Shown here piece by piece: positions 21,901 to 22,030 of a DNA stretch of 49,203 bases (positions are counted from its first letter, which is position 1; each line of letters begins with the position of its first letter). The stretch is taken from positions 1 through 49,203 of the forward strand of contig CAYXUA010000001.1 in NCBI GenBank assembly GCA_964468015.1, read 5' to 3'. The DNA comes from an uncultured Clostridium sp. (GTDB taxonomy: Bacteria > Bacillota > Clostridia > TANB77 > CAG-508). Under the pieces are notes generated by a model. The model was not told the DNA's origin, ran no database searches, and saw nothing but the letters and a program-made list of their open reading frames with translations. The position numbers and the translations under genes are program-made.

Positions 21901-22030
21901 TAGAGTAGTACCAAAGAATAAGTGATTAAAAATAAAAATTATCTCCTTCCAAGCTCACGGGTATTCCCCCGCCTCAAAGGGCTGTCCGGAGATAATTTTT
22001 ATTTTTAATCACTTATTCTTTGGTACGGCC
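21901..22030 (+). repeat. Long-hairpin intergenic element E3
   Basis: Flank TAGAGTA (21901-21907). Perfect 39-bp arms at 21908-21946 and 21988-22026. The 41-nt GC-rich core contains GCTCACGGGTATTCCCCCGCCTCAAAGGGC. Flank GGCC (22027-22030). Confidence 0.85.

Follow-up and report, generated by a model that had tools for sequence, protein, structure and literature searches.

A family of interspersed palindromes with freely varying but paired arms and a conserved tip in uncultured gut Clostridia

Four long hairpins between the genes of the window

The DNA analysed here, called the window, is a stretch of 49,203 nucleotides from an uncultured Clostridium sp. (contig CAYXUA010000001.1 of assembly GCA_964468015.1, positions 1 to 49,203), in which an initial annotation made from the letters alone had singled out four long intergenic hairpins, E1 to E4. 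The window has a GC content of 27-35% and encodes SleB, YpeB, MurF, Ddl, DnaJ, a type IV secretion system coupling protein and very large surface proteins, a gene content which identifies the host as a spore-forming member of the Clostridia. The nearest named YpeB homologue belongs to Candidatus Merdicola (68% identity). E1 and E4 are each found between convergent genes, E2 between an HD-domain gene and a region of pilin-like genes, and E3 between the stop codon of ypeB (22080) and the murF promoter (21844-21872).

All four elements were located at the positions first assigned to them, with arms that are perfect or, in E1, nearly so. E1 (10548-10750, minus strand) consists, in the order of the minus strand, of TAGAGTAG, the left arm, a nested centre, the right arm and CGGCT. 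Its outer arms of 36 nt (10552-10587 pairing with 10708-10743) are 92% complementary and enclose a centre of 120 nt, the 'type 2 tip' (10588-10707, minus). In E2 (17354-17484, plus), fully complementary arms of 42 nt (17354-17395 and 17443-17484) enclose a 47-nt centre on the minus strand (17396-17442), and the flanks read CTA/GC.. and ..GC/GGTAACC. E3 (21901-22030, plus) starts with TAGAGTAG (21901-21908) and ends with GGCC (22027-22030); between its 39-nt arms (21908-21946 and 21988-22026), again 100% complementary, is the 41-nt 'type 1 tip' GGACAGCCCTTTGAGGCGGGGGAATACCCGTGAGCTTGGAA (21947-21987, minus). E4 (25381-25528, plus) is bounded by TAGAGTAG (25381-25388) and GGCCC (25524-25528). Its 41-nt arms (25388-25428 and 25483-25523) are 100% complementary, extendable to 54 nt at 93%, and the 54-nt centre (25429-25482, plus) contains the type 1 tip as the 29-mer CCCTTTGAGGCGGGGGAATACCCGTGAGC at 25442-25470.

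Folded on either strand, each element gives one long hairpin of -70 to -90 kcal/mol. When the window was shuffled 100 times with its dinucleotides preserved (span up to 280 nt), arms of at least 16 nt occurred at a mean of 0.01 per shuffle and none was comparable to those of E1-E4; the longest perfect inverted repeat was only 18 nt, which excludes a chance origin. The flanks of E1, E3 and E4 are indeed common, as had been noted, with AGAGTAG on the left and CGGC(C/T) on the right. Of the four occurrences of TAGAGTAG in the window, three adjoin E1 (minus strand), E3 and E4. The E2 flanks are related but not the same (CTAGC ... GCGGTAACC). In pairwise comparison the arms of different elements are 60-67% alike, slightly lower than the approximately 70% estimated before, and their divergence is confirmed. 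With related flanks and diverged but compensated arms, E1-E4 make up a true family, in agreement with the earlier view. The hairpins also break assemblies, since three Logan contigs of the same strain from independent short-read assemblies (L115-L117) all end within E3.

A GC-rich core with shared words had been described for all four elements. For E3 and E4 the likeness exceeds shared words: both contain the identical 29-31-nt centre CAGCCCTTTGAGGCGGGGGAATACCCGTGAGC, on opposite strands relative to the common flanks. When set against E4 and L015, a locus of another genome and the closest relative of E3, the E3 tip reads on the minus strand, inverted with respect to the TAGAGTAG flank. An alignment of E3 with L015 extends over tip and upper stem only if the orientation is reversed relative to the CATAGAGTA flank that they share, and the E3 tip is therefore inverted within its scaffold. 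The arms pair without fault as far as the tip itself, which makes such an inversion possible. On the minus strand, the E2 centre has a weak likeness to the type 1 tip (TTGAGCGG..GGATTACCC; also GGGTAATCC / CGCC.CTCAAG), and was not picked up by a profile built from the E3/E4 centre. The E1 centre is a different, larger module: GACGAATG.. is followed by an inner hairpin of about 33 bp (10603-10689), with a conserved loop of GAGG..small hairpin..AGAGGCTCG, and then by ..GAAGCCGAGGAA. A metagenome-assembled genome (MAG) from goat caecum (L006) has two copies of this type 2 tip, in which the inner helix covaries and the outer arms are unrelated.

The type 1 tip in gut Clostridia

A wide scan with a 20-mer from the E3/E4 centre, covering one genome per species, returned at least 114 loci, all in MAGs of uncultured gut Clostridia. 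Among the matches listed there were 27 assemblies, and in every case the motif was at the apex of a long AT-rich hairpin. Altogether, more than 120 tip-capped long AT-rich hairpins with several unrelated arm sets were counted. A second search used a tip profile that did not require the 20-mer, to show which parts are invariant. These were GACAGCC, GGAATACC(C) and (C)TTGGAG, separated by a small hairpin of variable sequence and length and by a variable 3' stretch. In RNA letters, the tip thus reads GACAGCC, small variable hairpin, GGAAUACC(C), variable stretch, (C)UUGGAG. The small hairpin (P2) ranges from 3 bp to 33 bp. Among the matches listed, 27 MAG species had the type 1 tip, and the arm sets bearing it were of at least four or five unrelated kinds.

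A degenerate tip scan of metagenomes added about a dozen genuine variants, all at hairpin tips and on contigs of 33% GC or less; about 100 of the 120 stretches returned do not fit the tip profile and are probably chance matches. The type 1 tip had no match in PLSDB plasmids, INPHARED phages or IMG/VR. In Rfam 15, no match at the gathering threshold was obtained for the window, 18 loci and a long-tip variant, and the E-value mode (E up to 10) returned only generic long-hairpin matches (miRNA precursors) and one 14-bit match to twister-sister. A literature search for the tip motif string retrieved no paper. The family is apparently undescribed, confined to a lineage of uncultured gut Clostridia and widespread there.

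The copies were grouped by their arms. In family A, the left side runs (TA)GAGTAGCG-YGAAG, variable helix, TAATATATTTTATTTTT-GTAATGAAG-WCC and tip, and the right side GGC-GAAATGR-AAAAAATAAAATATATTA, complementary helix and GGRAGCGGA. Family B arms start with TCAGCCGTTTTGTATA, family C is preceded by a small hairpin (TTAATGAAAAT..ATTTTCATTAA), and family D is represented by L015; further arm sets exist. Within families A, B and C the tip has a constant orientation relative to the flanks. Another scaffold type was observed at L063 (5690-5860), L214 and L156, of the form TAGCCAAACG(A/C)AG, stem ... stem, ..AGATTT(T)GGCGGAC. Its outer helix is of 6 bp (GCCAAA / TTTGGC), and it bears the type 1 tip or another tip with its own hairpin.

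In one MAG (CAOKHI01, here CAOKHI), the family A hairpin is found inside a MITE (a miniature transposable element with inverted repeats) of about 190 bp, present in dozens of near-identical copies (L001, L005, L010, L016 and about 35 other loci). Its ends are 14-bp terminal inverted repeats (GTTACWATTCACAG / CTGTGAACTGTAAC) with 8-bp target duplications, and its orientation is skewed relative to GC skew (29 vs 12). Outer terminal inverted repeats are likewise present in the family B copies of MAG JAZNWN. The CAOKHI element is a secondary capture and burst, and nothing like it was seen in the window. The initial annotation had held that the elements do not behave like recent MITE copies, a view that near-identical copies would speak against. 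It is upheld in the window, given the likeness between arms reported above; it fails in CAOKHI, where the burst is of exactly the near-identical kind.

A number of motif readings were tried and rejected. A hammerhead was not supported, as GUAAUGAAG..CGAAA lacks C3 and G5 and has an extra base, and neither a K-turn nor a sarcin-ricin motif gave a canonical fit to the internal loop of family A. For sigma-54, sigma-K and sigma-70, no convincing reading of flank and tip was obtained. The frame of a short open reading frame (ORF) after the GGAGG of the tip is not conserved because the length of the A-run varies. The Chi-like AGCGG / GAAGCGG in the right flank of family A has the wrong orientation for a break at the palindrome and is absent from the window copies. 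A retron-like UAGC branch motif was dismissed, there being no a1/a2 repeats, no reverse transcriptase and too many copies.

Pairing of the arms and state of the sites in relatives

The conservation of the tip and the turnover of the arms can be seen side by side at orthologous sites. At the rfbC-rfbB spacer, the neighbouring genes of L008 and L054 share about 87% identity, and a stretch of about 110 nt made up of tip, upper stem and flanks shares 100%; in the 12-bp basal helix, 8 of the 12 positions have changed, each with compensation. The same pattern was found at the sbcD-sbcC spacer of three species (L020, L044, L110). Family A was then aligned as 13 distinct copies (506 cells), and its covariation was compared with that of 500 shuffles and of slid controls. 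Paired cells made up 98.2%. Double changes were recorded in 14 pairs (44 cells), against a shuffle mean of 10.5 cells, with none of the 500 shuffles reaching 44, and against 7-11 in the slid controls. Only 4 of the 506 cells were G-U. Across 21 independent arm clusters, amounting to about 600 bp of stem, there were 14 isolated mismatches: five G-U on the tip strand, two reverse G-U and seven transversions. From the scarcity of both mismatches and G-U it follows that pairing is kept very efficiently, as strict Watson-Crick complementarity. Stems of this strictness are not usually those of an RNA helix under selection.

Leaving the MITE burst aside, 23 copies have the tip pointing along with both neighbouring genes and 17 have it pointing against them. 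Relative to the sign of the local GC skew, the counts were 31 vs 40. No strand bias of the copies relative to genes or GC skew was therefore apparent.

Loci syntenic with the window (L118-L124) were gathered through YpeB homologues of 90-83% identity. The ypeB-murF spacer, which is the E3 site, contains no hairpin in L118, L119, L120, L123 or L124, with ordinary terminators in some; in L123 the ypeB stop codon runs directly into the murF promoter. In L121 (YpeB 83% identical), the site is occupied by a tipless 33+33-bp perfect palindrome (6491-6556) in the same orientation and with the same flanks as E3 (GGGGCCG / stem ... stem / CTACTCTGTAAC), whose arms are about 60-70% alike to those of E3. 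A spacerless 66-bp perfect palindrome of this kind is expected to be unstable. Adjacent to it (6407-6467), downstream of ypeB, a hairpin with 30-bp arms, a 1-nt loop and GGGGAC-motif flanks was also observed.

The E4 site of the relatives holds ordinary bidirectional terminators. In the E2 region, downstream of the HD gene, the same scaffold recurs in L120 (CAGAGTAG / arms / CGGCCCTAA); its tip there is 88 nt long, starts with CGACAG, ends with TATGGAG and has a 9-bp helix inside. Its sister L124 retains only TTAGAACC-GTGAAGAAGAAAA, the base of one arm, indicating the imprecise deletion of an L120-type element. After the HD gene of L123 there is a tipless 24-bp hairpin with a GTAG-type left flank (9446-9508). 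The purine-rich scaffold arms of window and relatives are recognisably homologous (AGAGTAG-T-N2-4-GAAAAGAAGA..ATAT..AAAAAT), and hence descend from a common sequence and were not copied from local flanks. Among the close relatives, some thus have the elements, some lack them, and others have them without a tip or only in part. Breakpoints of synteny coincide with three of the four window copies: at E1 between traG and the activase genes, at E2 between the HD gene and inserted pilin-like and glycine-rich genes, and at E4 between a glycosyltransferase gene and an inserted ORF with an AAA_21 ATPase gene.

Other features were observed around the elements. Between the traG-like gene and E1 (11050-11170, minus), a perfect match to a consensus promoter (TTGACA, 16 nt, TG-TATAAT) points to E1 and is followed by a ribosome-binding site, an 18-codon ORF and a hairpin. 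A (TG)8.5 microsatellite (17616-17632) is situated in the spacer that separates E2 from the HD-domain gene. On the minus strand, 17139-17312 and 19585-20031 share repeated DNA (17152-17233 / 19920-20014) that also matches many MAG loci and codes for prepilin-type N-terminal segments (..GITLIALIITIIVLLILAG..); the copy near E2 is seemingly frameshifted. Directly to the right of E4 (25529-25565) are three YAATCAA repeats spaced by about 12 nt, with one more at E3, and heptamer arrays lie beside related elements in other MAGs (GTGATTA x5 in L051, TTAGARR x7 in L043). Next to E4 (25581-27509), a 118-aa ORF with no Pfam match and an AAA_21 / SMC_N ATPase gene are absent from all syntenic relatives and may form a small defence-type islet.

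A fifth long perfect palindrome (23997-24122), of another kind than E1-E4, was found between the divergent sleB and glycosyltransferase genes. It is ATAG-tagged and has 44-bp arms around a 38-nt AT-rich centre; the arms are GC-richer and built from ATTGCCAAT-(A/G)GGGACGG units. Half of it is repeated (AAAATCCCCCGTCCCTATTGGCAATTT, 27630-27665) upstream of the AAA_21 ATPase operon, and short hairpins with a GTAG tag in related MAGs contain the GGGACGG motif again.

Origin and function of the elements

At about even odds, E1-E4 are lineage-specific non-coding palindromic interspersed repeats of spore-forming gut Clostridia with about 31% GC, whose arms would be homogenised by template switching and whose tip would be selected. 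They would then be 'foldback' elements, of the kind represented by hairpin-forming pairs of repetitive extragenic palindromic (REP) sequences, or REPINs, by bacterial interspersed mosaic elements (BIMEs) and by MITEs. The copies behave as a modular family; they come and go, nest, erode and are at times captured by a transposon. The arms may owe their Watson-Crick complementarity to a DNA-level process in replication, either template switching within one molecule or conversion of one arm by the other, and the same switching could flip the tip (spacer inversion) and so give the orientation seen in E3. Perfect arms, rapid compensated divergence, the near absence of G-U and an inverted centre are what template switching produces, so that selection on an RNA helix is not needed to account for the arms. 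Between inverted repeats, template switching is reported to homogenise the arms and invert the spacer (PMC8604942), and quasi-palindrome mutagenesis is documented in Escherichia coli (PMC7202029). The initial annotation had left a choice between selection and conversion acting on the hairpin. Conversion is the part that stands; selection on an RNA helix is not favoured in view of the few G-U pairs, the inverted centre and the lack of orientation bias.

An ordinary explanation thus exists for the behaviour of the arms and not yet for the tip. Together with an asymmetric internal loop in some subfamilies, the tip is probably under purifying selection. Since template switching explains neither the invariant tip nor the loops of family A, purifying selection on sequence or fold is implied, and hence a reader. 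The most likely candidates for this reader would be a protein acting in trans to spread or maintain the elements, or a DNA- or RNA-binding protein of the host.

Several observations weigh against interspersed repeats with homogenised arms. The strongly conserved part is the centre and not the arms, which is the reverse of MITE and REPIN logic. Two loops of family A persist across species, one internal and asymmetric (GUAAUGAAG / CGAAAUGR) and one basal (CGAAG / GGGA). Homogenisation with nothing to oppose it would erase them, and they therefore suggest selection on the folded single strand or on a specific duplex sequence, for which an account by selfish DNA alone offers no explanation. No IS200/IS605, RAYT (Y1 HUH) or other transposase was found among 801 clustered ORFs around the copies, which were also screened for the HUH-Y motif. 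No target-site duplication is evident at E1-E4, where TA dinucleotides at the borders are uninformative in DNA of 31% GC. A precise filled/empty pair was not found either, the difference between L120 and L124 being the imprecise deletion described above.

The 801 ORFs were only housekeeping genes. The associated IS200/IS605 or RAYT gene proposed as a thing to look for was not found next to any copy, and Pfam scans of the neighbouring genes in the window revealed no RAYT gene or integrase. Inverted repeats 300-5000 nt apart, as expected of an autonomous version, proved to be pairs of separate copies, none of which encloses a gene. No parent insertion sequence with the same ends was found around the copies, and an uninterrupted 'empty target' (AGAGTAGCGGA) was not found in 1.7 Mb.

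The conserved asymmetric loops, the invariant tip and the strong covariation of the helix are also what a structured RNA would show, either as a non-coding RNA gene or as a cis-element in which a long variable helix with conserved GA-rich internal loops and an apical junction serves intercistronic or 3'-untranslated-region stability or processing, or acts as a multi-copy small RNA. The variable length of P2, the conservation at the orthologous rfbC-rfbB and sbcD-sbcC spacers, the small GC hairpin and T-run that follow the elements of L026, L036 and L051, and the intrinsic terminators at the E3 and E4 sites of relatives all fit such a role. Against it, G-U pairs are nearly missing and show no forward-strand excess, the tip is not biased in orientation to genes and is inverted within the same scaffold in E3, L121 has a tipless orthologue, no Rfam family matched even at E-values up to 10, and CAOKHI alone has dozens of copies. 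A structured RNA is accordingly judged unlikely, at something like one case in five. A role of the hairpins as bidirectional terminators or 3'-end mRNA stabilisers of the host, merely long ones, is very improbable. E1, E4 and probably E2 are at gene 3' ends, E3 follows the ypeB stop codon, and canonical terminators occupy the E3 and E4 positions in relatives; however, neither the invariant tip nor the common flanks would be explained, the ypeB-murF spacer of the close relatives L118 and L123 contains nothing at all, and E1 lies between two separate terminator-like hairpins identified by a consensus terminator scan. The same scan does not call E1-E4 and no T-run follows their stems, which bears out the statement that these are not ordinary terminators and lack U-tracts.

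Two further explanations, both improbable, concern mobility. The tip itself could be a tiny module, autonomous in trans, that colonises the apices of existing AT-rich hairpins (scaffolds, MITEs, terminators), the hairpins being its targets. Its occurrence on unrelated arms and in both orientations with an identical sequence, the scaffolds with no tip or with other tips, the nesting of a hairpin in the tip of E1 and the apical position of every tip copy observed would agree with this. However, no filled/empty pair with otherwise identical arms is at hand (the arms of E3 and L121 differ too much, and a central deletion fits equally), the fixed orientation in families A, B and C is that predicted by descent from one founder, the empty target is missing from the 1.7 Mb searched, and we know of no mechanism for moving a 40-nt piece. 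Alternatively, the elements might be ordinary MITEs that arose by deletion from an insertion sequence with a DDE transposase and are so old that they have diverged; we give this only a slim chance. The CAOKHI element with its terminal repeats, duplications and copy number, the outer terminal inverted repeats of JAZNWN family B and the intergenic, AT-rich placement of copies in both orientations argue for it. Aged MITEs gather arm mismatches, however, and the arms here are perfect; the window copies show no evident target duplication and have conserved termini of only about 8 nt, neither a parent element nor its transposase was seen around the copies, and a conserved centre with variable ends is the opposite of what transposase binding to terminal repeats predicts.

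Among known systems, REPIN/REP with RAYT (TnpA-REP) comes closest to the interspersed repeats proposed here, because of the GTAG tag, the design of conserved ends around a compensated middle and the presence of classical REPs in related MAGs. Both are non-coding, high-copy and intergenic, and form a long hairpin. The GT[AG]G expected 0-2 nt 5' of a REP hairpin is present: GTAG abuts the stem in E1, E3, E4 and family A, and E2 has CTAGC in its place. REPINs have conserved ends and a hairpin-forming middle that is constrained only by pairing, with compensatory changes being common (PMC3116915), and the E1-E4 family likewise has conserved ends around a compensated middle. By published criteria, a REP stem has 7-20 paired nucleotides, a GC-rich base and a loop of 2-5 nt (PMC6006769). 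The stems of E1-E4, in contrast, are of 36-42 bp and AT-rich, their first four bases are GTAC, GTTG or GTTC, and their centres are of 41-120 nt. Furthermore, the most conserved part here is the centre of about 40 nt and not two terminal REPs, the ends (AGAGTAG vs CGGCC) are not inverted copies of each other, and a RAYT gene was found neither around the copies nor in the window. The family may work like REPINs, judging from these comparisons, and is not claimed to be one. Short GC-rich GTAG-tagged hairpins of the classical REP type (GTAGGGG-N5-9-loop-N5-9-CCC) are common in related MAGs and absent from the window; loci include L027 (1549-1625), L028 (5854), L030 (3625-3710), L046, L062 and L068, among others, and their stems vary with compensation.

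The BIMEs of enterobacteria are built of two inverted REPs with a conserved linker between them (for example the L motif, which binds IHF), and their arms are conserved palindromes. They appear to resemble the present family in having two inverted arms of about 35-40 nt and a conserved non-palindromic centre of about 30-40 nt as a possible protein-binding site, and both are mosaic and modular. Here, however, the arms vary between copies and are not internally palindromic, and lineage and sequences are unrelated. ERIC/IRU, Correia (CREE) and RUP/BOX elements are likewise imperfect palindromes of 100-200 bp, intergenic in both orientations and often co-transcribed, and CAOKHI provides a true MITE version on the side of the present family. 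In those elements conservation covers the full length, and there are defined termini and target duplications. Neither is evident in the window copies, whose arms are conserved far less. The template-switch (quasi-palindrome) process predicts both identical arms and a flipped spacer, as were seen, but it is a process and not an element family, and leaves tip, flanks and spread unexplained. Integron attC sites are recombination sites set by a folded single strand with little sequence conservation, located at the 3' ends of variable genes, to which the breakpoints at three of the four window copies offer a parallel. The R''/R' core sites (RYYYAAC / GTTRRRY) are, however, absent from the flanks and stem bases of E1-E4, no integrase or cassette array is present, and copies also occur within conserved operons.

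On a more speculative note, the scaffold and its interchangeable GC-rich tips (type 1, type 2 and the 88-nt tip) could represent a new class of structured single-stranded nucleic-acid element, with a recognition or catalytic module on a long helix for which pairing is enough, and would then be more than one further MITE or REP family in decay. It would be read by a protein system, either as single-stranded DNA (by a mobiliser of the HUH or recombinase type) or as a multi-copy RNA, and tips would be exchanged between scaffolds. We consider this rather unlikely.

Bacterial interspersed palindromic repeats are already known as a kind; what is new here is the architecture of a conserved tip on free arms. 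The finding adds a repeat family to the poorly studied uncultured gut Clostridia, and one with an unusual logic, in which the centre is invariant and the arms are free but perfectly paired. Its many orthologous and paralogous long palindromes form a natural data set for measuring arm homogenisation and spacer inversion. As the hairpins interrupt short-read assembly and mark breakpoints of gene content, they also bear on MAG quality and on the reading of synteny. Finally, a motif of 40 nt that is so sharply defined must have a reader, so that the search for the factor is directly testable.

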